A stretch of 10,116 nt of DNA from a virus (Duplodnaviria; Heunggongvirae; Uroviricota; Caudoviricetes). Positions 1 to 10,116 of the stretch are shown one piece after another. Below the pieces are notes generated by a model that saw only the letters and a program-made list of their open reading frames with translations, did not search any database and had not been told where the DNA came from. The translations under genes and the position numbers were made by a program. Positions within the stretch are counted from its first letter, which is position 1. Each line of letters begins with the position of its first letter. The stretch lies in IMG/VR virus record IMGVR_UViG_2531839265_000009, positions 1-10,116 of that record. One strand, given 5' to 3'.

Positions 1-426
1 TTATAGATAGACCTCATCTATCAATCCCGTGCACACCTTCCCAAAAAAAAGTTTTCGAACCTGCGGCGATGTGAACAAGGGTAGGCGGGCGGTCCTGGGC
101 AGCCGGGGTTGCAAGGATTTGATCCGCCCCTCCCACCAATATTTATCGCCGTAACCGCTCCGGCTTCTTCCACTGGTACGTAATTTTTCTTTCTCCTGGT
201 ACATCTGCACGCGGCGACGGTACGACAACATCTCCAGAACTCTGGTGCGTATGTTGCGCATATCCACGCCGTTAAGCTCGATACCGTCACGGCGCATCAC
301 CTCAGCCACCACACGCGCGTAATTTCCGGCTATCACGCTGTCCGGCTGCGTGGCCTCCTGTTTGCCTGCTGCCTGGCTGGCTCCGGTAACGCGGCGAATC
401 ATTTTCAGCATTTCGGCTTCGGTCAT
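1..426 (-). CDS. hypothetical protein (141 aa from ATG 426; frame stays open to TTG at 456)
   Basis: Minus-strand ORF with TAA stop at 3..1. In-frame ATG at 426..424 lies 8 nt downstream of GGAGG (439..435). The N-terminal ~95 aa look like an ordinary helical protein; the C-terminal third is Arg/Pro-rich and overlaps a second open frame (21..290), so an undetected frameshift is possible. No family recognised. Confidence 0.45.
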   Translation of the reverse strand: MTEAEMLKMIRRVTGASQAAGKQEATQPDSVIAGNYARVVAEVMRRDGIELNGVDMRNIRTRVLEMLSYRRRVQMYQEKEKLRTSGRSRSGYGDKYWWEGRIKSLQPRLPRTARLPLFTSPQVRKLFFGKVCTGLIDEVYL

Positions 427-467
427 TGTCATGGCCTCCGTGGTGATAGGAAACAATGTCGTAATTG

Positions 468-547
468 TGGCGGGTCCTTCCTGGAAAATGAAACACCGGG
501 GGTAGCCATACGCGCAAAAACGCGCTGTTTATGAGATTTTTCGGAAG
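468..547. repeat. left arm of ~80-bp imperfect inverted repeat (partner at 1201..1280)
   Basis: Reverse complement of 468..547 aligns with 1201..1280 at roughly 80% identity. Conserved cores are AGCGCGTTTTTGCGCGTA and TACCCCCGGTGTTTCA, plus GGA(A)GGACCCG. Confidence 0.8.
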
Positions 548-708
548 GGTGGTTGTTGTTTAATTGTTTGTTATATCCATTTGATAACTAAGAGAAAACT
601 GAAAACAATACAACAACCTGAGGGCGTTTTTTTGATGTTATGGTTCCGAAAATGCCAATTAAATCAAATGGTTTAACAAAAATACGCGGTTGTTGTATTG
701 CATACTTA

Positions 709-1149
709 TTAGCTTTCCTGCTCTGTAACTACAGATTGTTGCAGATGCTCACGGCGAACGGCTACGGCATGACGCCACCCAGCCAGAAAGCCGGCCATTT
801 TATTTCGTGCCTTGCTCACGTCTTCCGGTGAGTAGCCGTAAATCTGCAGACCATTATCAAATCGCTGTTCTGTTTCTTCACTGAAAGACTCGTCGCGCTC
901 TGATGAAATCAACCTGGCAACCATAATCTTTTCCAGTGCGCTGGTTTCTCCATGGTGCTCAATAGCCTCAAGATGGCTTTTACCCATGCACCAGAATAAT
1001 GTGTGTCCGATGTGATAACCGCCGGACTTTCCGCGATCCGCATCAAGATACGGCATGCCCTGTTTGGTCCATGCGCGAATAGTGGTTCTGTTGACCTTGA
1101 AATGTTCTGCTATTTCCTGCTGACTCACAAAACAATCTTTATTATTCAT
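709..1149 (-). CDS. Nu1-like terminase small subunit-like protein (winged-HTH DNA-binding N-terminus); possible packaging-redirection factor
   Basis: 146-aa ORF. N-terminal segment QQEIAEHFKVNRTTIRAWTKQGMPYL resembles the lambda Nu1 N-terminus KKQLADIFGASIRTIQNWQEQGMPVL as I remember it. AAGGT RBS about 7 nt upstream of ATG 1149. Confidence 0.7.
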   Translation of the reverse strand: MNNKDCFVSQQEIAEHFKVNRTTIRAWTKQGMPYLDADRGKSGGYHIGHTLFWCMGKSHLEAIEHHGETSALEKIMVARLISSERDESFSEETEQRFDNGLQIYGYSPEDVSKARNKMAGFLAGWRHAVAVRREHLQQSVVTEQES

Positions 1150-1200
1150 AATGTTACCTTAATCGCATGATTAAATATTAATCAAGTGGTGGTGGTGTAC

Positions 1201-1280
1201 CCTTCCCGGAAAGTGTCATAAATAGCGCGTTTTTGCGCGTACACGTACCCCCGGTGTTTCAGATCCTGGAAAGGACCCGT
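1201..1280. repeat. right arm of ~80-bp imperfect inverted repeat (partner at 468..547)
   Basis: See partner arm. This arm lies between the terminator at 1282..1307 and the TerS-like start codon at 1149. Confidence 0.8.
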
Positions 1281-1281
1281 G

Positions 1282-1307
1282 AAAAAAAAGGCCGGATTGC
1301 TCCGGCC
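1282..1307 (-). terminator. rho-independent terminator at the end of the head-gene operon
   Basis: GGCCGGA (1290..1296) / TCCGGCC (1301..1307) stem with a 4-nt loop. On the minus strand it is followed by a run of 8 T (plus-strand A run 1282..1289). It sits directly after the stop of the ORF at 1312..1659. Confidence 0.75.
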
Positions 1308-1311
1308 TTTC

Positions 1312-1659
1312 TCAGATGTTTTTCAGTATGCGATCGATGGTATCCGTATCATAACCTTCACCTGCATAACCAGCATCTGCATAAATGGTCGCATCCTGTT
1401 TCATCATTGCGCTTAGTAGTTCGCTCGCCATATCTGCATCAAGACGCGAGACGCTAGCCATGCCACGCAATAACGGCTGATATTCAGGTGCGTCACTCAG
1501 AGCCATGATAGCGTTGACGCGATTTTTATCCTGCCTATCCAGAGCCTCAAGATTACTTCTGGCTTCATAAAGCGGCATCCCTTCATCTGCCATTGCCCTG
1601 GCTTCAACAGGAAATTTTCTGGCAAGCATTAACGACATAACGGCTTCATTCTTTGGCAT
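1312..1659 (-). CDS. hypothetical protein (115 aa), last gene of the head-gene operon
   Basis: Open frame on the minus strand. First ATG (1659..1657) follows the decoration-gene stop by 14 nt, and that intergenic spacer is a G8 homopolymer on the coding strand (C8 at 1662..1669). The upstream part of the 1312..1725 ORF overlaps the D-like gene in another frame and is not counted. No family recognised. Confidence 0.5.
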   Translation of the reverse strand: MPKNEAVMSLMLARKFPVEARAMADEGMPLYEARSNLEALDRQDKNRVNAIMALSDAPEYQPLLRGMASVSRLDADMASELLSAMMKQDATIYADAGYAGEGYDTDTIDRILKNI

Positions 1660-1673
1660 ATCCCCCCCCGTAA

Positions 1674-2009
1674 TTATCGCGCCAGTGGCTGAACTGATAT
1701 ACCTGACCCCGCAAAAGCTGCGCATTTCTTCACGTCTGTAGTGACGCTTTCAGGCCAGTTAACGGCGGCAATATTAAAAATCCCTGTCTTGTAACACTGT
1801 GCGGATTTTTGCTTTGCCGTGTCCAGGGGGTAGGAGGTCAGATAAATGGCCTTGCCTGATTCCTGACCGTCCCACGCCTTAAACTCGCCGTTCTCCGTCA
1901 TCATCAGCGGGGTAAACTCGGGAATAGCTCCGGCATCAGCGGCAAAGTGCACCAGCGTAGTGGAAACCTGCTGTGTACCGGAAAATAATTCAATATATGG
2001 AACGCCCAT
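1674..2009 (-). CDS. head decoration protein, lambda gpD-like
   Basis: 111-aa ORF. TPLMMTENGEFKAWDGQESGKAIYL...YKTGIFNIAAVNWPESVTTDVKKCAAFAGSGISV aligns along its whole length with lambda gpD as I remember it (TPLMLDTSSRKLVAWDG...[35 protein letters not shown]). GGGGGA RBS 5 nt upstream of the ATG. Confidence 0.8.
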   Translation of the reverse strand: MGVPYIELFSGTQQVSTTLVHFAADAGAIPEFTPLMMTENGEFKAWDGQESGKAIYLTSYPLDTAKQKSAQCYKTGIFNIAAVNWPESVTTDVKKCAAFAGSGISVQPLAR

Positions 2010-2021
2010 AAAAATCCCCCG

Positions 2022-3076
2022 TTAACCAATTTTCACGGTAACAAATTTGCGGATATCTGCCGGAACCGGTTGCGGTGCGCTGTGCGTCTGCACGTACTCA
2101 ATCGCCGGATCGCCTGGCTCAATCCAGTTTTTCGGGTAGTACATATTTCGTGTTGTGCCAGTTCTTACCGCGTCCTGATCCATAATTGCCCCATAGGCTA
2201 CCAGTCCTTTATTGCTGGTGTTCCCCAGAACAAGCAAATCAGGATCAAGAAAATGTTTTCTGTGCCGTCGCTGTCGGTGTATTTACCGGAATAAACAATA
2301 AGCGCCAGATCTCCCAGGTAGCCTTTAAAGCTCACCACTTCGCCCAGGTTTTTACACGCCAGCTCTGCCGCAGACTCTGACCCCCGGGACAAATCATAAA
2401 GTTCCCGGAATTTTTTAAAGCTGCGTAACAATCGCCAGGCATTCGCCCCCATAATCATGACGTTCGCGGGGCACTCAGCCTGTTCGGTATACAGTTCAAT
2501 ATCATCTGTCGGATCATGCGTCTCTTTATCCTGCTCAGACCATTTTTTCCCTGGCCCCTGCTGGATAATGCAGTTTGCTGGCATCCTCCAGTCGATTTCG
2601 TAGCGTTCTATGCCTTCGCCCTCAATGATATTTTTTCCGGTAGTGACTGCATTTACCGCCAGCCATTCAACACGGGCTTTGATGGCTTTTACCTGACGGC
2701 GAAGATTGCCGGTAATGAGGCGGAGGCGACGATAAGACGGGCTGTTGAGTGCTGCCGGATCTTCACCAGCAACACGCATAATGGTTTTTGATGGATCGAT
2801 TTCGTGTTTTGGCTTCATGTAGCCAGGCTGGATAATGCTTGTTTCGTACCCTTTATCACGCTGAACCTGACTACCCACCATCGGCGAACAAAATGCCGAC
2901 ATGGTTACTTCGTCATTTTCCAGATCATCTAACATAATCTTCTGTGTATCGAAGGTTGCGACGTTAGGGAAAAATAACGTGGTAAACAGCGGATTGAATT
3001 TAAAATCATCAACATCAGGACGATTCAGATAGGAAAAAAGCTGGTTTGTGTTCAGTGGTTGCGCCTTATCTGTCAT
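2022..3076 (-). pseudogene. major capsid protein, lambda gpE-like, interrupted by a 1-nt frameshift near 2250 (pseudogene or homopolymer sequencing error)
   Basis: ORF 2198..3076 matches the lambda gpE N-terminal and central regions (KFNPLFTTLFFP vs KFDPLFLRLFF; GYMKPKHEIDP vs GYVKPKHEVNP; THDPTDDIELY vs TYDPTDDIEAY). ORF 2022..2237 in another frame matches the gpE C-terminus (VLGNT..., YPKNWIEPGDPAIEY...). The frames switch at minus-strand gaaaacattttcttgat; one extra T would restore ...ENIFLDPDLLVLGNT.... GGGGGTGAG RBS upstream of ATG 3076. Confidence 0.8.
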
Positions 3077-3458
3077 TACTCACCCCCATGAGGCTGATTC
3101 ATACCAAGCGCAGCGCGTAAATGACTGCGTACCATCCAGCCGACTGACGGCTTCACCATGCACAACGGATCAAGGCCGATTTTTTTCCTGCCTCTGCGTT
3201 CTCCTCAAAGCGCGCATTAAGTGCGGCGATAATATCGGGGCTGATGTACACGGATACACCGCCCGGCTTCTGTGTTCCCATAAATGAGATTCCTCTTTGA
3301 CTAAAAACAAACATAACGAAAAGTCAGTCATGATTTTAATCATCGTTGCATTTTTTGCAATGATATTGACTGTTGTTGCAAATCATGAAATTATCATGCC
3401 GTGGTTTTACTCCTTGTACCACAGACTCATTCAGCATTAATCACGTTAGCGGCATGAA

Positions 3459-3492
3459 ATCCCCCGGAACCACATCCCGGGGGATTTTTTTT
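3459..3492 (+). terminator. plus-strand rho-independent terminator (no plus-strand CDS upstream; possible sRNA terminator)
   Basis: ATCCCCCGG (3459..3467) / CCGGGGGAT (3477..3485) 9-bp stem, followed by a T8 run on the plus strand. Confidence 0.6.
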
Positions 3493-3497
3493 GCGCA

Positions 3498-3524
3498 CAA
3501 AAAAGCCGGGAAAAATCCCGGCTT
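3498..3524 (-). terminator. minus-strand terminator downstream of ssb
   Basis: AAGCCGGGA (3503..3511) / TCCCGGCTT (3516..3524) 9-bp stem with a 4-nt loop. On the minus strand it is followed by TTTTGTG, a short U tract. It lies about 15 nt after the ssb stop. Confidence 0.5.
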
Positions 3525-3538
3525 CTGTCACTCGTTGC

Positions 3539-3961
3539 TTAAAACGGTATGTTATCCCCGTACGGATCATCATTACCCGCCTGTTGTTTTGCCCTGTTCA
3601 GCGCGTCAGTGGCCTGGCTCTGCTGGCCTTTTTTGCCGCCCGGGCGCGCCGTTCTGGCACTGATTACGCTGTCTGCGATAACCTGCCAGCCCTGCCGCGC
3701 TTCGCCGTTCTGGCCTGTCCACTGGCTTACCTGCATGTTACCCGCCACGCTCACCAGTTCGCCTTTGTGGTGTTTTGCCAGTGCGTCGGCCTGTCTGCCA
3801 AACGCCAGGACGGATAACCACATCGTCGCCGTTCCGTCATCTGCCTGGCTGCACGGCAGGGGAACCGCCATACTCGCCATCGCCATTTGTGTCCCTTTGC
3901 TGGTGGTCTTTAACTGCGGGTCAGTCGCCAACCGCCCGTAAGCCGCTATCTGTGCTGTCAT
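3539..3961 (-). CDS. ssb: single-stranded DNA-binding protein (SSB), plasmid/phage type
   Basis: 140-aa ORF. It has an OB-fold-like core (WLSVLAFGRQADALAKHHKGELVSVAGNMQVSQWTGQNG, compare E. coli SSB [40 protein letters not shown]), a Gly/Gln-rich linker and an acidic tail DDPYGDNIPF (compare DFDDDIPF). Its start overlaps the upstream gene stop as ATGA. Confidence 0.85.
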   Translation of the reverse strand: MTAQIAAYGRLATDPQLKTTSKGTQMAMASMAVPLPCSQADDGTATMWLSVLAFGRQADALAKHHKGELVSVAGNMQVSQWTGQNGEARQGWQVIADSVISARTARPGGKKGQQSQATDALNRAKQQAGNDDPYGDNIPF

Positions 3962-4209
3962 GCTGTCTGCTCTCCGGTTTTAACGTTGATGGTTGTCACC
4001 TGTTCCGCTTCGGCAATCTCCCGTTCTGTCAGCGTGGCAAAGTTTGCCGCCGCTGTGGTCATGAATGCGCTTATCAGTTCAGGATGCGCTTTCGCGTATC
4101 CTTCCCCGGCGTGGCGGTCTATCGTTCTGATTGCCACCTTTAAGGCGTGCTCTGTCATGTCTAATGCGCGATATTTTGGCGCTGTCTTATCTCTGCTTTT
4201 TCTGGTCAT
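3958..4209 (-). CDS. hypothetical protein (83 aa), translationally coupled to ssb
   Basis: Open frame whose stop overlaps the ssb start (ATGA). GAGGA lies immediately upstream of ATG 4209; an alternative internal start is M18. No family recognised. Confidence 0.5.
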   Translation of the reverse strand: MTRKSRDKTAPKYRALDMTEHALKVAIRTIDRHAGEGYAKAHPELISAFMTTAAANFATLTEREIAEAEQVTTINVKTGEQTA

Positions 4210-4218
4210 TCCTCACTG

Positions 4219-4412
4219 CTCCCCACTTTTACTACCCACTTTTTGAAATTACCCAACGTCTCCCCACTTCTTTTTTTGTGATTCTAACGTGATGTTTTTC
4301 AATGTATTTTTTATTCCCCACTTTTTGGGGTATATACAGGTGGGAAAGTGGGGAATCGCGTTTCAATTTTGTTAAATTCCCCACACTCCCCACTTTTACT
4401 ACCCACTTTTTA
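4219..4412. repeat. iteron-like repeat cluster with AT-rich spacer; candidate origin of replication
   Basis: 26-bp direct repeat CTCCCCACTTTTACTACCCACTTTTT at 4219..4244 and 4386..4411. Additional CCCCACTT(T) copies at 4262..4270 and 4316..4326. An inverted pair TTCCCCACTTT (4314..4324) / AAAGTGGGGAA (4345..4355). An AT-rich stretch at 4271..4315. The cluster lies immediately 3' of the helicase gene. Confidence 0.6.
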
Positions 4413-5783
4413 CAGTGGGCGCACGTCATCACCGTCAATAGCAATAACGCCATCACCTTCCAGCTTGTACAGCCAGCGCCGGAAGTGTTTCATCTCATAC
4501 CCCAGCTTTTTCATATCATCGCGCAACAACGGAATTGTGCATTTATCGCCGCGCTGTGTGCGTGAACGGATACAGCCCCATAGCGCGGCATGATTCTCCG
4601 TCTTGTTCCCGGCTTCCTCGATGCGCTCCAGTTCAACAGGTGGGCGCGGCTTATCCACAACCACCAGCGACGTGATTAACTCCTTGTCAGCGTCGGTAAA
4701 AAGCTCCACCACGCGTAAATCGTATGCAGCCTCTTTAAGTTCCTCCGCGTCCTTCATTTTGGTACAGGAGATAACCAGGGCTTCACTGTCTGCACCTTCC
4801 CGGCGAATACGGTATTCAGCGTCCAGAGATGCACGAAATGCACTGGAACCACGCGCCCCCTTTGTTTCATCCTTGCCGGAATGGTGAACCACCAGTACCG
4901 TGGCCCCTGTGCGTCGCTTCAGTTCGTCACATCCACGGATAAACGCCCCCATATCCCGCGCGTCATTTTCATCATTACCGCCAAAGCAACGCGCCAGCGT
5001 GTCCAGAATAATCATGCGTACCGGTTTACCCGTTTCCCGTTCAACCTGACGGGAAGCGATGACCATTTCATCAACATCAAGCGGGACCGCCGGAAAAATC
5101 GGGCGGTTTACCAGGTACAGATTTTTCACCCGTTCATCATTAACGATTTCCCATGCTTTGATACGACGAGGGACACCAATGCCACCTTCACCGACGACAT
5201 ACATCACCGAACCATGCGCCACCCTGCGGCCTCCCCAGTGGCGACCCGTGGCAACATGACACGCCCAGGAACACGCGAGGAATGATTTATAGGAACCGCT
5301 CGCGCCGTATGTGCTACACAATGAATTAGCCGGAATCACGCCCTTAACGACATAATCAAGCTGTGTGTCGTACCCTGCAGATCCAATACTCATTGGTAGC
5401 GTGGTTTTTCGCTGGCTGTATTGCTCGTCAGTAAGTATTTCCCCGCGCTCTGCCTGTTCGCGGATCCGTTGCAGGTAGTCGTGCCAGTTCTCCAGCTTCT
5501 GGCTGTGCATTCCCTCAGGGTAATAATTCGCATCCCGTACACCTGCCGCCGCCAGTTTTTGCCCGATGGCATTAATATTTGACGGCTTGATGTGGCCTGC
5601 CTTGTATAGCCGGACACAATAGCGACCATCATCGATGATTTTCAGGTCTGCCAGTTCGTCAAGCTGGCTGTCTCCCAGCCATACAGGCGGAACATTGTCG
5701 CCAGCAAGTCGCCCGTCCTGTTCCTGCCATTGTTTCGCGTGCGCCCAGGCATCACTACCCGCAAAAATAATGACTTCGGTCAT
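4410..5783 (-). CDS. replicative helicase, RecA-fold AAA_25 / RSF1010 RepA-like ATPase domain with an unassigned ~150-aa N-terminal domain
   Basis: 457-aa ORF. RMIILDTLARCF (Walker B-like), TVLVVHHSGKD and KGARGSSAF match the RepA/AAA_25 helicase pattern as I remember it (RLMVLDTLRRF, SIVFLHHASKG, ASRGSS). The P-loop region is GASGSYKS at 5283..5306. Confidence 0.75.
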   Translation of the reverse strand: MTEVIIFAGSDAWAHAKQWQEQDGRLAGDNVPPVWLGDSQLDELADLKIIDDGRYCVRLYKAGHIKPSNINAIGQKLAAAGVRDANYYPEGMHSQKLENWHDYLQRIREQAERGEILTDEQYSQRKTTLPMSIGSAGYDTQLDYVVKGVIPANSLCSTYGASGSYKSFLACSWACHVATGRHWGGRRVAHGSVMYVVGEGGIGVPRRIKAWEIVNDERVKNLYLVNRPIFPAVPLDVDEMVIASRQVERETGKPVRMIILDTLARCFGGNDENDARDMGAFIRGCDELKRRTGATVLVVHHSGKDETKGARGSSAFRASLDAEYRIRREGADSEALVISCTKMKDAEELKEAAYDLRVVELFTDADKELITSLVVVDKPRPPVELERIEEAGNKTENHAALWGCIRSRTQRGDKCTIPLLRDDMKKLGYEMKHFRRWLYKLEGDGVIAIDGDDVRPL

Positions 5784-5820
5784 TTTGTCGTGCGGCTGTT
5801 TTTTAAGTTCGGTGCCAGTT

Positions 5821-6120
5821 TCATTTTTTGCCCCTGAATGCGTTAATCATGTTTTTCATTTTCTGAATGTTCGCCCGTGCCCTGGCGTTACTGGTGGGCT
5901 GTTTGCGTGGTGTGGCCTGTACCAGTGAAAAATCGCGCCGGAACTGATAAACAGGCATCACGCAGTCATAGCTGTACCCATCACGGCGGTAAGTAACGCA
6001 TCGTCCCGCCACGCTTTTAATCGTTACCGTGCCGCCGTAGTTATCCCTGAAAATATCGCCGGGGCGGATTTCAGGCCGAGCGGGGCCGCTGGCAGTAAAG
6101 CCAGAATTTTTCTGTTTCAT
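5821..6120 (-). CDS. hypothetical small basic protein (99 aa) immediately upstream of the helicase gene
   Basis: Open frame with AGAGGA RBS 8 nt upstream of ATG 6120; lysine/arginine-rich C-terminus. No family recognised. Confidence 0.55.
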   Translation of the reverse strand: MKQKNSGFTASGPARPEIRPGDIFRDNYGGTVTIKSVAGRCVTYRRDGYSYDCVMPVYQFRRDFSLVQATPRKQPTSNARARANIQKMKNMINAFRGKK

Positions 6121-6190
6121 GGTTTTTATTCCTCTGCGCGGGTCTTGTTGTGTATTTCCATAACCGCGTTTAATTCATCAATAACCGGGG

Positions 6191-6334
6191 TTAACAGAGT
6201 GCTGAAAGCAGAAAATAAATCCCCCCCTGTTCGGCATGAACTTCGGTTAATTTAATTAATACCGCTTTCATTTCCAGTGCCCGATTTAATGCATTCTCAG
6301 AATGAATAAGAACATCGAAAGGGATTTCATTCAT
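6191..6334 (-). CDS. hypothetical small protein (47 aa)
   Basis: My own translation from ATG 6334..6332 gives MNEIPFDVLIHSENALNRALEMKAVLIKLTEVHAEQGGIYFLLSALC, stop TAA at 6193..6191. It is below the ORF-track length cutoff. Its start overlaps the stop of the upstream gene (ATGAATGA) and shares the start context GGTGAGCCATG with that gene. Confidence 0.4.
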   Translation of the reverse strand: MNEIPFDVLIHSENALNRALEMKAVLIKLTEVHAEQGGIYFLLSALC

Positions 6335-6791
6335 GGCTCACCACCTCCGGGAATTTTCTTCTGTAACGCGCCTCTGCAACATATTCCGCATAGTCCGACG
6401 CAATATTGAGAATATCCACACCCTCTGCCCTGTAGCCACTGGTACTGATAAGGAAAAATGCGGCTTTCATCATGTCGGCAACGCATAACAACGCATCGCC
6501 GGTGTGTTCTGGTGCGCCATCAAATTCCTGTTTCAGGGCATTAAAACGATCATCACGCATAACCCCCCCATTTTCACAATCAGCAATCAGGATGGCTTTA
6601 GCCTCATTCAGTGCCATATCAGCGGTAAGCTGTGCGTAGGCCAGCGAATGGGGGATTATTGCCCCTGTATACTCCGGCTCTCTGCTAATGTGTTTTTCCG
6701 CGGTTGCTGCCGTGCATGAAATATTAATCAGCGCGTGCATCAGCGTTCTGATAGCTTCGGCGGCTGCGTCCGGACGGGTGTTATTGCACAT
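6327..6791 (-). CDS. hypothetical protein (154 aa)
   Basis: Open frame with GGGGGTGAG RBS and start ATG 6791..6789. Overlaps the upstream gene by 11 nt and the downstream small ORF by 8 nt. No family recognised. Confidence 0.55.
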   Translation of the reverse strand: MCNNTRPDAAAEAIRTLMHALINISCTAATAEKHISREPEYTGAIIPHSLAYAQLTADMALNEAKAILIADCENGGVMRDDRFNALKQEFDGAPEHTGDALLCVADMMKAAFFLISTSGYRAEGVDILNIASDYAEYVAEARYRRKFPEVVSHE

Positions 6792-6987
6792 GGCTCACCC
6801 CCTGACGAATACGGGCGGCGAATACCATCACGCAGCCAGCCGGGGATTGCTGGCGTGCTTCCTGTTCGCTGGTGGCCTCAATGGTAATCACGCGCGGTTG
6901 TGCCGTACTCAGGGCGATAAAACGCCAGATATATTTATTCAGGTTGTGCGAGTCCCGCCCTTGCGGGTGTGTGGTATGATTTCTCAT
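6781..6987 (-). CDS. hypothetical small protein (68 aa)
   Basis: The 3' 68 codons of the long 6781..7425 frame, starting at ATG 6987..6985 with GAGG 5 nt upstream. The rest of that frame runs antisense through the RHH gene and is rejected. Stop TAA at 6783..6781 overlaps the next gene's start. Confidence 0.4.
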   Translation of the reverse strand: MRNHTTHPQGRDSHNLNKYIWRFIALSTAQPRVITIEATSEQEARQQSPAGCVMVFAARIRQGVSHVQ

Positions 6988-7068
6988 AGCTGCCTCGATA
7001 CTCTTTCTATCGTTGGTGGTTAGACGCCCTGCATGTGTGCCACCACTGCGGGGCGTTGCGTTTTTTGA

Positions 7069-7128
7069 TGTACACGTGTTAAGGTGTACACCTAACGAAC
7101 CAAAACATAACGCTATAGGTGTACACAT
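7069..7128. promoter_or_regulatory. three GTGTACAC-type palindromic operator-like sites upstream of, and overlapping the start of, the RHH gene
   Basis: TGTACAC at 7069..7075 overlapping the ACACGTGT palindrome at 7072..7079. Perfect 12-bp palindrome AGGTGTACACCT at 7082..7093. AGGTGTACACAT at 7117..7128, which overlaps the probable RBS (AGGTG) and the A of ATG 7127. Confidence 0.6.
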
Positions 7129-7321
7129 GTCAACAGTTATTAAGCGCGATAAAAAACAAAAAGGCACAGGAAAGGCCCCACCATTCCATATGCGTATAGT
7201 CCCTGAATTGAAGGAGCAGTTTGATAACGAAGCCAGTAACGATGGAGTAAGTCTTGCCAACTGGCTTAAAGAGTTAGGGCGCAAAGAACTGCTACGGCGC
7301 GGAATTGAGCCAAAGGGATAA
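7127..7321 (+). CDS. Arc/Mnt-family ribbon-helix-helix DNA-binding protein (64 aa)
   Basis: FHMRIVPELKEQFDNEASNDGVSLANWLKELGRKEL fits the RHH beta-strand plus two-helix pattern (compare Mnt FNFRMPMEVREKLKFRAEANGRSMNSELLQIV). ATG 7127 sits 5 nt after AGGTG. The longer 7013..7321 frame upstream has no RBS and runs through the operator palindromes. Confidence 0.6.
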   Translation: MSTVIKRDKKQKGTGKAPPFHMRIVPELKEQFDNEASNDGVSLANWLKELGRKELLRRGIEPKG

Positions 7322-7330
7322 CTATCACTA

Positions 7331-7861
7331 ATGTCGCAACCAGAGGAGTTGCGACTCCAAAGATTACATAGGAGATTAATGATTATGGGATTCGTCATTT
7401 TCATTGCGATCGTAATTTTATCCATTTACGTTCTTACCAAATTATTTATTTCAGAAAATTCACACGACAAAATTAGAGCCGAGGCATCCAGAAGAATTGC
7501 ACAAGAAGAGGCCGAACGGGCTAAGTTGTATGAAGAGAGAAAGGAATCATCTGATAATCCTGTTAATAAACAAAAACGAATAACAACACACGAAGATCAT
7601 TTTTATATGGATATTCATGGCGGTCACAAATATATATGTGTTGATGCTAAGTTAGTTTTTGAATATGCAAATTTAAAACACAACTATTTTCTTCACGCAT
7701 CTCACTATTTCCCTGAGTTAGAGTATGTTTATGGAAAAAACGAACATGGGAAAATAGTTAGAGTAGATTTGTACGATAAAAAAATTCAAGCTATTAACCC
7801 CGATACTGGCGAAAAAATACCAGGTGTGAGACGTTACCTACGACAGCACAAGATAAAATAG
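7331..7861 (+). CDS. single-pass membrane protein with ~130-aa His/Tyr-rich C-terminal domain, unknown function (AT-rich cargo gene)
   Basis: Open frame with one hydrophobic helix (MIMGFVIFIAIVILSIYVLTKLF) preceded by a basic segment (RLQRLHRRL), then a charged linker and a C-terminal domain. Strong AGGAG (7370..7374) favours ATG 7379 or 7385 as the real start; 7331 is the longest frame. Markedly AT-richer than its surroundings, by eye. Confidence 0.6.
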   Translation: MSQPEELRLQRLHRRLMIMGFVIFIAIVILSIYVLTKLFISENSHDKIRAEASRRIAQEEAERAKLYEERKESSDNPVNKQKRITTHEDHFYMDIHGGHKYICVDAKLVFEYANLKHNYFLHASHYFPELEYVYGKNEHGKIVRVDLYDKKIQAINPDTGEKIPGVRRYLRQHKIK

Positions 7862-7963
7862 CCCACCGGAATTTTTTTCCGGTTACGCTTTGCCCACCAG
7901 CCGCAAATGTGGCATTGTTGGCAATGCTCATGCGTTGGGGATAACGTGTAGCTTGTGTCGAAT

Positions 7964-7991
7964 GGCCACCGTAGCAGGTGGCCTTTGTTTT
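7964..7991 (+). terminator. rho-independent terminator for the plus-strand cassette
   Basis: GGCCACC (7964..7970) / GGTGGCC (7977..7983) 7-bp stem with a 6-nt loop, followed by TTTGTTTT. Confidence 0.65.
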
Positions 7992-8142
7992 GCCTGTTAT
8001 CCGGCAATTGTGGCGCTTCGTCACACGGTTGATATAATTCCCCTGCACTGATCCATTTTTTTCGCAGCAGGTTAATTGTTCACAAGGGCGCTCCGGCAAC
8101 GGGGTGCTTTTTGTTATGTTCATTGCGTTACACCTAACACCA

Positions 8143-8349
8143 TTACGCAGCCGTTCCGCGCGCTTCTTCCTCGCGTTCTTTCAGCCAGGCCAGCACCTCA
8201 TCTTCATACCAGCCAACACGGCGCAGACCGATTTTGAAGCCTTTCGGGAATTTTCCGGCGCTGATCATGTCCTGTAGCGAACTGTCTGCCTTGATGCGCA
8301 GAATATTTTTTACTTCCTGACGGGTAAGAATTTTTCTGATTACTTCCAT
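8143..8349 (-). CDS. alpA: AlpA-family phage transcriptional regulator (MerR-like HTH; excisionase/activator-like)
   Basis: 68-aa ORF. ILTRQEVKNILRIKADSSLQDMISAGKFPKGFKIGLRRVGWYEDEVLAWL matches the AlpA pattern (L..V....G.S..T.Y.....G.FP.....G.R.VGW...EV..WL). GAGGT RBS 9 nt upstream of ATG 8349. Confidence 0.85.
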   Translation of the reverse strand: MEVIRKILTRQEVKNILRIKADSSLQDMISAGKFPKGFKIGLRRVGWYEDEVLAWLKEREEEARGTAA

Positions 8350-8414
8350 CGTGTTTTACCTCGTTAATCCGGCGTATTCCGGTGATAAATACGGTAAAAC
8401 AGGGCAGGGCGGGA

Positions 8415-8454
8415 AAAACAGTACTCACCGTTTTAAAACGGTACTCACTGTTTT
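8415..8454. promoter_or_regulatory. two tandem 20-bp imperfectly palindromic repeats upstream of alpA (candidate operator)
   Basis: AAAACAGTACTCACCGTTTT at 8415..8434 and AAAACGGTACTCACTGTTTT at 8435..8454, differing at 2 positions. Each has inverted ends AAAAC.G / C.GTTTT around TACTCAC. Confidence 0.55.
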
Positions 8455-8482
8455 TATCTCATTGATTACGCTTTCTTTTTGC

Positions 8483-8513
8483 AAAAAAAATAGCGACCGC
8501 AAGGGGCCGCTAT
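8483..8513 (-). terminator. rho-independent terminator after the int / small-ORF transcription unit
   Basis: ATAGCGACC (8490..8498) / GGCCGCTAT (8505..8513) stem with one mismatch. On the minus strand it is followed by a T run (plus-strand A run 8483..8489). Confidence 0.6.
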
Positions 8514-8518
8514 TGTGA

Positions 8519-8761
8519 TTACCGCTTCCACTTCTTAGGTCGTCCACCACATTTAAGGCTGGTGGGTCTCAGCACCTTGTCGATGCTTTCAGCCAGATTT
8601 TTCGATGCGCCACGCGAGCGTAAAAAACTGACTACCTCGTGTTTTGTGGGGGCTGTTGATTTGTCTTCCGGATCGTATGTTGACCAGAATTCATGATTTG
8701 CCATTAACGCCAGTTGCAGTCCTTCACCGCAGACATTGGATGATTTTTCGTGCCAGACCAT
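8519..8761 (-). CDS. hypothetical protein (80 aa) between int and alpA
   Basis: Open frame only. Weak RBS. Basic C-terminus (GRPKKWKR). No family recognised; the exact start is uncertain. Confidence 0.4.
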   Translation of the reverse strand: MVWHEKSSNVCGEGLQLALMANHEFWSTYDPEDKSTAPTKHEVVSFLRSRGASKNLAESIDKVLRPTSLKCGGRPKKWKR

Positions 8762-8874
8762 TTCAATAAATCTCGATTTCTCATGAGTCGGGTTTTTCCT
8801 TGTCTGTTGAGGAGATAGAGGATTATACGATGGTTTGGCATGGTTTGCACTGGTTATACTGTTTTTTTGTACAG

Positions 8875-10116
8875 TTACACGGCACGGATACCCCTTTTAC
8901 CACTGGCTATGGTCACTCCGGTAGCTGCGGCCTCTACAAATTCCCCCCACCAGCGCATAAGCACCACGCGCTTTTCCAGGTAGTTACTTCGGTTATATGC
9001 TCGCCTTACCTCGTTCGTGTCCACGTGTGCGAGTGCGGCCTCGATTACGTCCGGCTCGAATCCTTCCTCGTTCGCTGCTGTACTGAATATGGCGCGTAAT
9101 CCGTGAGACACCAGCACACCAGCGTATCCCATCCGGCGCAATGCAGCGTTAGCGGTCTGGCTGCTCATTGGCAGCATTGGATTTTTAAGGCTGGGAAAAA
9201 CATGTTCCCTGTGTGCGCTGATTGGCTTCATTGTTTCCAGTACAGCCATCGCCTGACCGCAAAGAGGGATCACATGGTCACGGCGCATCTTCATGCGTCC
9301 GGCTGGAATCGTCCATGTTTCGGCATCGAGATCTATTTCTTCCCAGCGTGCGGCGGCTGCTTCGGCTGGGCGTGCTACGGTCAGCAGTTGCCACTCAATC
9401 AGCAATCTGGTTTGCCGTTCTATGCTGGCGACCGATAAATCGTGCATTAGCTGCGGTAGCTGTTCCGGTCGGATGGTTGGCATATGCTTTTTAGTGGGAG
9501 AAGGGAATGCCTTGCGGACGTTCGCTGCGGTGTTGATGTCAATCAGCCCACTGTTGGCAGCAAAATCCATCACTTCATTGATGCGTTGTAAAACGCGTTT
9601 CAGAGTTTCCAGGTTGCCACGCGCTTTAATGGGGGTGAGTATCTCGACAAAGCGGCGAGCGGTGAGGGTATCTATTGGCGTTTTTCCGATGTACGGGAAT
9701 ACGTATTTTTCCATGGATCGCCAGATATCCTTAATCGTGTTGTAAGCCAGATTCTGGCCTTTTTTCATCTCGTACCAGTCCGAGGCAACTTTTTCGAACG
9801 TGTTGCCCTTTTTCCTGCTCTCTGCTTCACGTTTCCGGCGTTCGTAGTCCTGTGGGTCAGTTCCCTTTGCTATGAGTGACCTGTATTCATTCCGTCGCTC
9901 TCTGGCATCAGACAGGGAAACATCATTTAGCGATCCAAGGCTGATAATAGTCCGTTTTTTATCTGCCGGGCGGTAGTACGTAAAACGCCAGATTTTTGAT
10001 CCGGAGGGCTTCACCAGAAGAAATAATCCTCCGCCATCCTGCAGGGTATATTCCTTTTCCCCTGGTCGTGCGTTTTTGATCTCCGTAATAGTTAGTGGGG
10101 GGGTTTTTCGTGCCAT
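8875..10116 (-). CDS. int: tyrosine site-specific integrase, P4-family (prophage CP4-like)
   Basis: 413-aa ORF. N-terminus YTLQDGGGLFLLVKPSGSKIWRFTYY is the typical P4-type integrase arm domain. C-terminal catalytic region contains the HGLR box (VSHGLRAIFSTAA) and a downstream Tyr (RRAYNRSNYLEKR). The ATG is the last three bases of the window, so its RBS and the attachment site lie outside. Confidence 0.95.
   Translation of the reverse strand: MARKTPPLTITEIKNARPGEKEYTLQDGGGLFLLVKPSGSKIWRFTYYRPADKKRTIISLGSLNDVSLSDARERRNEYRSLIAKGTDPQDYERRKREAESRKKGNTFEKVASDWYEMKKGQNLAYNTIKDIWRSMEKYVFPYIGKTPIDTLTARRFVEILTPIKARGNLETLKRVLQRINEVMDFAANSGLIDINTAANVRKAFPSPTKKHMPTIRPEQLPQLMHDLSVASIERQTRLLIEWQLLTVARPAEAAAARWEEIDLDAETWTIPAGRMKMRRDHVIPLCGQAMAVLETMKPISAHREHVFPSLKNPMLPMSSQTANAALRRMGYAGVLVSHGLRAIFSTAANEEGFEPDVIEAALAHVDTNEVRRAYNRSNYLEKRVVLMRWWGEFVEAAATGVTIASGKRGIRAV

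Follow-up and report, generated by a model that had tools for sequence, protein, structure and literature searches.

The 10,116-nucleotide stretch analysed here (positions 1 to 10,116 of the IMG/VR virus record IMGVR_UViG_2531839265_000009; the window, meaning this whole stretch at its full length) can be assigned, with a probability of about 90%, to a phage-inducible chromosomal island (PICI) that is of the classical Gram-negative, EcCICFT073/Rpp type and has inserted at the tRNA-Pro gene proL of E. coli. It covers the inner part of that island. The element is an ordinary member of an already characterised E. coli phage satellite family, the EcCICFT073-type PICIs, with EcCICFT073 as the prototype Gram-negative PICI carrying RppA (Fillol-Salom et al. 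2018 ISME J PMC6092414; 2019 Mol Cell PMC6739421). The sequences show homology and synteny with EcCICFT073, the island boundaries, the iterons, the cos architecture and purifying selection on island genes. The original prediction, made from the letters alone, had called the window a satellite, and correctly so: it is a PICI with an int-alpA-replicase/origin backbone, ~10.7 kb long and located at tRNA-Pro without a surrounding prophage. The same prediction held the gene combination to be unrecognised and considered that it could be a distinct capsid-hijacking strategy or a decaying hybrid. This view is not supported, as EcCICFT073 has the same gene order and content and provides the close match to a characterised satellite family that the prediction itself had named as speaking against novelty.

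Judged by sequence, the island has every feature by which a Gram-negative PICI of the Rpp type can be recognised. In regard to the features described for Gram-negative PICIs (Fillol-Salom 2018), the integrase lies at one end, the attachment (att) site is a specific chromosomal one and the length of ~10.7 kb falls within the expected ~10-15 kb. An AlpA-family regulator downstream of int heads a unidirectional operon in which the downstream core genes are all on the same strand, and the island encodes an initiator for its own replication, directly followed on the 3′ side by an iteron origin. Genes for portal, terminase, tail and lysis functions are absent, as found by Pfam and PHROG searches over all open reading frames (ORFs) and by inspection of the flanks. 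In regard to the features of the Rpp type (Fillol-Salom 2019), there is an Rpp homologue composed of an N-terminal winged helix-turn-helix (wHTH) mimicking the DNA-binding domain of the small terminase (TerS) and of a C-terminal dimerisation region, together with a phage-like cosQ/cosN and a PICI-specific cosB beside rpp, and a second cos is present.

The synteny was established by comparing the window proteins by tblastn with the EcCICFT073 reference locus (L003, NC_004431.1 ~1,377,930-1,388,900) on the CFT073 chromosome. In its first part, this locus holds int, an alpA-type HTH gene, Icd-like and small genes, DUF4222, a primase, a small ORF, SSB and PerC, and in its second part an ORF of 68 amino acids (aa), the capsid gene (351 aa), the decoration gene (111 aa), a 137-aa ORF, the 144-aa RppA and a 93-aa ORF. 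The order shared with the window runs through int, alpA, Icd-like and small genes, DUF4222, the replicase with its 3′ origin, orf83, SSB and a small ORF, and then through the lambda gpE-like capsid gene (c1499), the gpD-like decoration gene (c1500), a helical ORF, cos1, rpp (c1503), an inverted cos2 and the last ORF. Capsid, decoration protein and Rpp are 83-89% identical between the two islands, and cosQ and the cosB of cos1 are conserved. On the other hand, EcCICFT073 is integrated next to roxA/phoQ whereas the present island occupies tRNA-Pro proL, its alpA is a different allele, and it has a PerC gene that the present island lacks. Its replicase is a primase while a RepA/AAA_25 helicase is found here, with only the first ~117 residues in common, and the cosN of the window is not the GGGCGGCGACCT of EcCICFT073.

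The features at the packaging end of the island are the following.

1150-1279, minus strand: cos1, made up of GGGTCCTTTCC (cosQ-like), a cosN region unlike that of lambda (CACCGGGGGTACGTGTACGCGCAAAAACGCGC) and a cosB of the PICI type that reaches the rpp start codon
709-1149, minus strand: Rpp (redirecting phage packaging), RppB-type allele, 146 aa, matching RppC in PDB 6HLK
471-549, plus strand: cos2, inverted with respect to cos1, sharing its cosQ and flanks but not its central 12 nt, and devoid of a PICI-type cosB

The 146-aa protein was originally taken for a Nu1-like TerS. It is identified as Rpp because it matches the RppC structures 6HLK/6HN7 with E=7e-34 over residues 1-135 (phmmer), against only E=0.28 for lambda Nu1 (1J9I), and its likeness to TerS (phrog_57, E=1.7e-8) is limited to the wHTH in the first ~45 residues. 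With EcCICFT073 RppA (c1503), the protein shares 83% identity by tblastn. It is closer still to RppB as given in PMC6739421 Fig. S1C, at ~96% identity by eye (about six differing positions), although that printed sequence was machine-read and may contain errors. Both proteins begin with MNNKDCF, end with VVTEQE(S/N) and have 146 aa, and equivalents of R21-T22 and L51 are found in the Rpp of the window. The RppB-encoding E. coli PICIs (PMC6739421 Fig. S1, Table S1) are related to this island through their near-identical Rpp, a likeness assessed at the protein level. According to the same study, RppA, RppB and RppC each block both lambda and phi80, phage TerS is bound by Rpp dimers at its N-terminal DNA-binding domain, and the complex formed by Rpp and TerS recognises the cosB of the PICI in place of the phage cosB (PMC6739421). 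An exact look-up of the Rpp protein returned 150 blocks of the public assembly collection, at the same chromosomal site wherever the flanks are given.

The cos sites were located through an inverted repeat of 79 nt (I1) that flanks rpp at 471-549 and 1201-1279 and is 80% complementary between its arms, and were then aligned to cos1 and cos2 of EcCICFT073 and to phage cos regions. Both arms retain the cosQ-like GGGTCCTTTCC and the right-hand ...CGCTATTTATGA... flank. In cos1, the ~55 nt before the rpp start codon are ~90% identical to the cosB of EcCICFT073 cos1 and unlike phage cosB (cf. PMC6739421 Fig. S1). In EcCICFT073, rppA is flanked by two exact copies of the lambda cosN (GGGCGGCGACCT) that are inverted relative to each other. 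In the window, a search for this lambda cosN with up to 3 mismatches (<=3) did not find it at the expected intergenic positions, and the core of both arms differs from that of lambda, reading CACCGGGGGT-N6-ACGCGCAAAAACGCGC. The two arms also differ from each other at 5 of the central 12 nt, with GGGTACGTGTAC in cos1 and GGGTAGCCATAC in cos2, and two phage cos sites of the variant type likewise differ in their central 12 nt. The predicted cohesive-end sequence seems to be free to vary in this cos lineage. We regard the variant cosN as a minor variation within a known mechanism.

In regard to the boundaries of the island, two public E. coli assemblies hold islands whose identity to the entire window is 99.85-99.89% and which lie between tRNA-Pro (proL)/yejM on one side and yejO/narP/ccm on the other. 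The tRNA-Pro(GGG) gene, which the original prediction had suggested looking for beyond position 10116, is situated ~210 bp past the integrase start in these near-identical islands (ARAGORN; 740-816 in island L006). When the empty K-12 site is used for comparison, one end of the island falls at the 3′ end of the tRNA and the other at a damaged repeat, CTCTCGTGCC...AAAAAT, that precedes yejO. The att sites lie outside the window, ~220 bp past 10116 and ~395 bp past position 1, which gives the element a total length of ~10.7 kb. A search for a long exact direct att repeat failed to find one, and the repeat of the tRNA-Pro 3′ end at attR has suffered damage, GACC being missing from it; damaged attR has been reported for PICIs (PMC10111431). 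Motifs AGCTACACG / AGCTATACG, repeated near both att sites (L006 925-1000 and 11435-11470, outside the window), are probably arm-type sites of the integrase. Within the window itself, neither a tRNA gene nor a significant match to Rfam was found. Parts of it match 1973 of 5426 complete E. coli genomes, while megablast of the window against 50,697 phage records gave no nucleotide match.

These boundaries bear on the alternative according to which the window belongs to a lambdoid prophage. The absence of portal, large terminase (TerL) and tail genes noted originally extends from the window to the flanks of the near-identical islands, where lysis genes are missing on either side as well. This excludes a prophage, and the contiguous lambdoid prophage that had been suggested as a check on the flanks was not found, both sides being core chromosome. 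A decaying remnant or hybrid that retains E, D and a fragment of Nu1 would account for the head-gene homologues, for the Nu1-like wHTH and for several frames that are broken in the window. It is nevertheless extremely improbable, since the island has core chromosome on both sides and a defined att duplication at tRNA-Pro, its gene order (E before D, cos-rpp-cos) is PICI-like and not lambda-like, and no phage record matches it at the nucleotide level. Contiguous late genes (Nu1, A, W, B, C, D, E, tail), immunity modules and lysis modules were likewise not found.

The broken frames have a different explanation. When the window is compared with the 99.9% identical island L006, there are 11 differences, namely nine single-base deletions, two substitutions and no insertions. 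The deletions, at window positions 183, 2255, 3179, 3302, 4270, 5798, 6220, 6562 and 8450, all lie in runs of 5-8 identical bases, and six genes (the capsid gene and five further ORFs) are interrupted or fused as a consequence. Every deletion falls in a homopolymer, in a pattern typical of under-calling in long reads, and is absent from the 99.9% identical islands, so that the broken frames are most likely homopolymer sequencing errors; this would also remove the decay on which a prophage remnant could be argued. Intact copies of the island occur, for instance, in GCA_053035105.1 and NZ_CM143727.1. One of the deletions, at 183, fuses orf94 to downstream sequence and produces the 151-aa ORF 1-456, which sets window position 1. 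It was right to state, as the original prediction did, that the window ends on gene boundaries, but the ORF ending at position 1 is an artefact of this deletion and the island runs past both ends. A genuinely degenerating island, with an inactivated capsid gene, replicase N-terminus and small genes, would fit the six genes interrupted in the window as given, yet it is quite unlikely, as nine of the 11 differences from L006 are of the kind that long-read homopolymer under-calling leaves behind.

The backbone of the island is formed by the features below, listed from the integrase end and completed by the last gene beyond cos2.

8875-10116, minus strand: tyrosine integrase, 413 aa (Pfam Arm-DNA-bind_3, Phage_int_M and Phage_integrase, E 1e-23 to 1e-26)
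8519-8761, minus strand: orf80, between int and alpA, called as a gene in L004-L007
8143-8349, minus strand: AlpA-family regulator, 68 aa (PF05930, E=1.6e-7)
7385-7861, plus strand: orf158, with a hydrophobic helix at its N-terminus, called as a gene in L004-L008
7127-7321, plus strand: orf64, called as a gene in L004-L008
6781-6987, minus strand: Icd-like gene (NCBIfam phage_ICD_like, E=1.5e-19)
6553-6791, minus strand: orf79, coordinates mapped from L006, broken in the window by homopolymer deletion 6562
6327-6560, minus strand: orf77, coordinates mapped from L006
6126-6334, minus strand: orf69, coordinates mapped from L006, broken in the window by homopolymer deletion 6220
5821-6120, minus strand: DUF4222 protein, 99 aa (PF13973, E=8e-25), 72% identical to its EcCICFT073 counterpart
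4410-5824 (window ORF 4410-5783), minus strand: RepA-family AAA_25 replicative helicase/initiator (PF13481, E=3.5e-44; phrog_2850, E=7e-245)
4220-4408, minus strand: replication origin, seven iterons AAGTGGGKA (one inverted) around an AT-rich spacer, directly 3′ of the replicase gene
3958-4209, minus strand: orf83, 85% identical to its EcCICFT073 counterpart
3539-3961, minus strand: SSB (PF00436, E=6e-16), 69% identical to its EcCICFT073 counterpart
143-426, minus strand: orf94, the last island gene (phrog_1561), 94 aa in L004-L011, 70% identical to its EcCICFT073 counterpart

Profile searches recovered each gene that the original prediction had listed, that is int, AlpA, the RepA-like helicase, SSB, the gpE-like and gpD-like proteins and the TerS-like wHTH. 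The iterons seen beside the helicase gene are equally real, with seven matches to AAGTGGGKA within 4220-4408 against 0.10 expected by chance, and their position agrees with the PICI convention of an origin 3′ of the replicase gene (PMC6092414). The integrase is 98.8% identical to WP_000101918 of island L001 and only 25% identical to the integrase of EcCICFT073 (tblastn). The replicase has 471 aa in the intact copies L004-L008, and the copy in the window loses 14 N-terminal residues through deletion 5798. Residues 2-117 of the window ORF (5433-5783) share 64% identity with the primase N-terminus of EcCICFT073, while the remainder is an unrelated AAA_25 helicase. Read from these alignments, the RepA-helicase and primase types of replicase share an N-terminal domain, and the integrase and replicase are to be regarded as different alleles of the corresponding EcCICFT073 modules.

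AlpA is the expected activator of the island operon by analogy with EcCICFT073, where its role is described (PMC6092414). Two copies of a 20-nt direct repeat, AAAACAGTACTCACCGTTTT, are located at 8415-8454 in the window, 65-105 nt upstream of the alpA start codon; this repeat could be a candidate AlpA autoregulatory site, and homopolymer deletion 8450 falls within it. Next to alpA, orf80 is followed by a terminator-like hairpin at 8514-8489 and matched no family in the Pfam, PADLOC and NCBIfam searches. The pair orf64/orf158 (7127-7861) is divergent from the operon, lies between alpA and the early genes and has a GC content of 37-39%. Nothing above threshold was obtained for it in Pfam, PADLOC and NCBIfam, and orf64 gave a weak RHH/TraJ-like match (E=1e-3), far below the cutoff. 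These two genes are probably accessory cargo. In regard to a role in defence, the divergent low-GC ORFs and the small early ORFs had no match in PADLOC or NCBIfam, and their gene positions show no correspondence with those in the Tai paper (PMC11364771).

A backbone of this kind is also found in P4, which has in common with the island an integrase, an AlpA/Vis-like regulator, its own replicase, dependence on a helper cos and a length of ~10-11 kb, and the tRNA site adds to the similarity. However, that the island could be a P4-like satellite of P2-type helpers is hardly conceivable. Families of Psu, Sid, Delta/Ogr and the alpha primase were not matched by any ORF, P2/P4-type cos is absent from the window when up to 3 mismatches (<=3) are allowed, and in its place the island has Rpp and lambdoid-type cosQ/cos flanks, pointing to a helper of the lambdoid type. 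The distinctions between PICIs and P4 are laid out in PMC6092414.

The remaining part of the island, between SSB and cos1, is a cassette with capsid and decoration genes.

3076-3281, minus strand: orf68 (phrog_3255), 68 aa in L004-L008, its stop overlapping the start of the capsid gene
2022-3076, minus strand: lambda gpE-like major capsid homologue (Phage_cap_E), orthologue of c1499, 351 aa in intact copies
1674-2009, minus strand: lambda gpD / phage 21 SHP-like head decoration homologue, orthologue of c1500, 111 aa (PF02924 (HDPD), E=3e-16)
1312-1659, minus strand: orf115 (phrog_1999), between the decoration gene and cos1

Two of these genes are affected by the deletions described above. In the window, orf68 is broken by homopolymer deletion 3179, and the loss of 1 bp from the T5 run at 2255 splits the capsid gene into ORFs 2198-3076 and 2022-2237 (Phage_cap_E profile positions 14-257 and 264-328), the protein having 351 aa in all relatives. 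The capsid is 84-89% identical to c1499 and the decoration protein 84% identical to c1500 (tblastn). After repair, the window capsid matches PDB 3BQW, the crystal structure already solved for c1499, with E=5e-206, and lambda gpE (7VI9) with E=4e-84. The decoration protein matches PDB 1TD0 with E=6e-14 and resembles phage 21 SHP and lambda gpD in a structure-sequence search. The model of orf115 produced by AF2 (AlphaFold 2) is all-helical (pLDDT 83), and its family is tiny, with only 6 representatives in 1.8 billion proteins, so that orf115 seems to be confined to these islands. A fold search gave no significant match for orf115; a few non-significant viral matches to scaffold or prohead-protease (S49) proteins serve as a lead only.

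Capsid genes carried by satellites have several precedents. The capsid-forming PICIs (cf-PICIs) of the EcCIEDL933 type (Alqurainy et al., bioRxiv 10.1101/2022.09.08.507074) have an int-alpA-replicase backbone and a satellite-borne capsid gene as well. However, they are 15-19 kb long and encode portal, protease, head-tail connectors, HNH, TerS and TerL, whereas Pfam and PHROG searches of the present island found none of these genes and only the capsid and decoration homologues. SaPIbov5, whose Ccm is a capsid homologue that redirects the size of the helper capsid, is another cos-packaged satellite with a homologue of a helper major capsid protein, but in the EcCICFT073 family neither size redirection nor a capsid-deletion phenotype was seen, and a decoration homologue is carried in addition. 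The HE-PICI 11capE (Tommasini et al. 2023, PMC10111431) is a Gram-negative PICI similar in size and order and with a gpE-family capsid gene; its cos is shared with its lambdoid helper (PMC10111431). Unlike the present island at a chromosomal tRNA gene, it sits inside the capsid gene of its helper. Among reference Gram-negative PICIs, 21 of 29 have a major capsid gene (Tommasini et al., PMC10111431).

Related to this, the gpE/gpD-like proteins of the island, perhaps together with orf68 and orf115, might co-assemble with the head proteins of the helper or replace them, generating satellite-specific (e.g. small) capsids by analogy with Ccm of SaPIbov5 and in addition to the action of Rpp. Several results would fit a satellite of this kind, which redirects capsids or forms them in part. 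Strong purifying selection acts on the capsid gene and the decoration gene, with ratios of nonsynonymous to synonymous substitution rates (dN/dS) of 0.10 and 0.12, respectively, when this island type is compared with EcCICFT073, below the 0.20 of Rpp. Intact versions of both genes occur in L004-L008, CFT073 and L001, and at a nucleotide identity of at least 80% they are present in 614 of the 5426 complete E. coli genomes. The capsid represents a satellite-specific lineage, at most 47% identical to any capsid among the 50,697 phage records, with Gifsy-1 as the best match and lambda and its close relatives at ~45-46%. This divergence, together with the purifying selection on the head genes, also speaks against the origin from a prophage remnant discussed above. 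The cassette has moreover been exchanged: the backbone of L001 is mostly 95-97% identical to the window, yet its capsid is only 59-63% and its decoration protein 50% identical (L001 9881-11276 vs window 1674-3076), which indicates, at the level of sequence, that the capsid-decoration cassette is swapped between otherwise near-identical PICIs. Finally, c1499 has a solved capsid-protein structure (3BQW).

Against these results stands the work on EcCICFT073, in which the capsid (c1499) and head-decoration (c1500) genes are named explicitly; deletion of either one left transfer and interference unchanged, and the packaged DNA was all phage-sized (PMC6092414). In addition, no portal, protease or recognisable scaffold was found in the island by Pfam and PHROG, and orf115 offers no significant fold match. 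We consider the redirection of helper capsids unlikely for these reasons, and retain the classical Rpp-type PICI as the interpretation of the window. Nevertheless, the data on selection, conservation and exchange argue for a functional cassette, without themselves pointing to its role, and in the literature on c1499/c1500 after that work we found no paper assigning them a function. It is conceivable, and we propose it tentatively, that the orf68-capsid-decoration-orf115 cassette has a morphogenetic or anti-phage function that was missed with lambda, phi80 and the CFT073 prophage. Such a function, for example the formation of chimeric or satellite-sized heads or the poisoning of head assembly, may be displayed only with the natural helper lineage, which for this island would be lambdoid prophages with the variant cosN.

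In regard to the identity of these helpers, the variant cos core is found upstream of nu1/terS in phages SerU-LTIIb and vB_EcoM-705R4, and it occurs in 107 of the 5426 complete E. coli genomes. In the lambdoid prophage of ETEC1746 (NZ_CP122727.1, about 2.527-2.54 Mb), it is located ~140 bp upstream of a terS-terL-W-portal-S49 head operon. The CFT073 lambdoid prophage served as a lambda-type reference for cos and TerS. The TerS of the ETEC1746 prophage is 88% identical to a lambda-type Nu1, most of the differences lying in the DNA-binding domain at the N-terminus; for TerL, the identity is 82%. The same TerS keeps Y50 and E65, the residues mutated in phages that escape Rpp (PMC6739421). Because the cosN of the island matches the cos upstream of terS in these phages, its natural helpers are likely to belong to this minority lineage of lambdoid phages with a matching cos, rather than to be lambda itself.

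The life cycle that would follow can be outlined by homology with EcCICFT073, for which alone helper-dependent induction, replication and transfer have been shown (PMC6092414). A lambdoid helper phage would trigger the expression of alpA, and AlpA would turn on the leftward operon. The integrase would then excise the island, and the RepA-type helicase, assisted by SSB, would replicate it, starting at the iterons that form the origin next to the 3′ end of the helicase gene. During packaging, Rpp dimers would bind the N-terminal DNA-binding domain of the Nu1-type TerS of the helper, and the Rpp-TerS complex, no longer seeing the phage cosB, would recognise the island cosB at cos1. Finally, the helper TerL would cut the island cosN and package island concatemers into capsids made by the helper, whose own packaging would be blocked. 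Each of the steps of induction, replication and packaging is thus a prediction by analogy with the homologous island.

Several points weigh against assigning the window to the EcCICFT073/Rpp type without reservation. The life cycle is drawn from homology, with induction, helper identity and packaging being predicted here from the sequence. The cosN is unlike that of lambda, so that the mobilisation by lambda and phi80 shown for EcCICFT073 cannot be assumed. With an integrase of 25% identity and a replicase of the RepA type, the backbone modules are, as far as the alignments tell, alleles unlike those of the model element. If the homopolymer deletions were real after all, the capsid gene of this particular copy would not be intact and the replicase would be truncated.

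The window thus adds a further copy to a satellite family that is common in E. coli and whose hijack of packaging through Rpp is already understood structurally. For the annotation of similar elements, it follows that in an int-alpA island, a small "TerS-like" wHTH protein located between inverted cos sites should be annotated as Rpp and not as a terminase, and that homopolymer indel artefacts should be looked for behind the apparent pseudogenes of such windows before decay is claimed. The question of what the capsid cassette does is not peculiar to this window, but concerns the whole family and is acknowledged in the literature; most Gram-negative PICIs retain a capsid/decoration pair that is under selection, although it shows no known phenotype. 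The variant cosN of the island points to the lambdoid prophages that would be suitable as helpers for probing the capsid/decoration pair.

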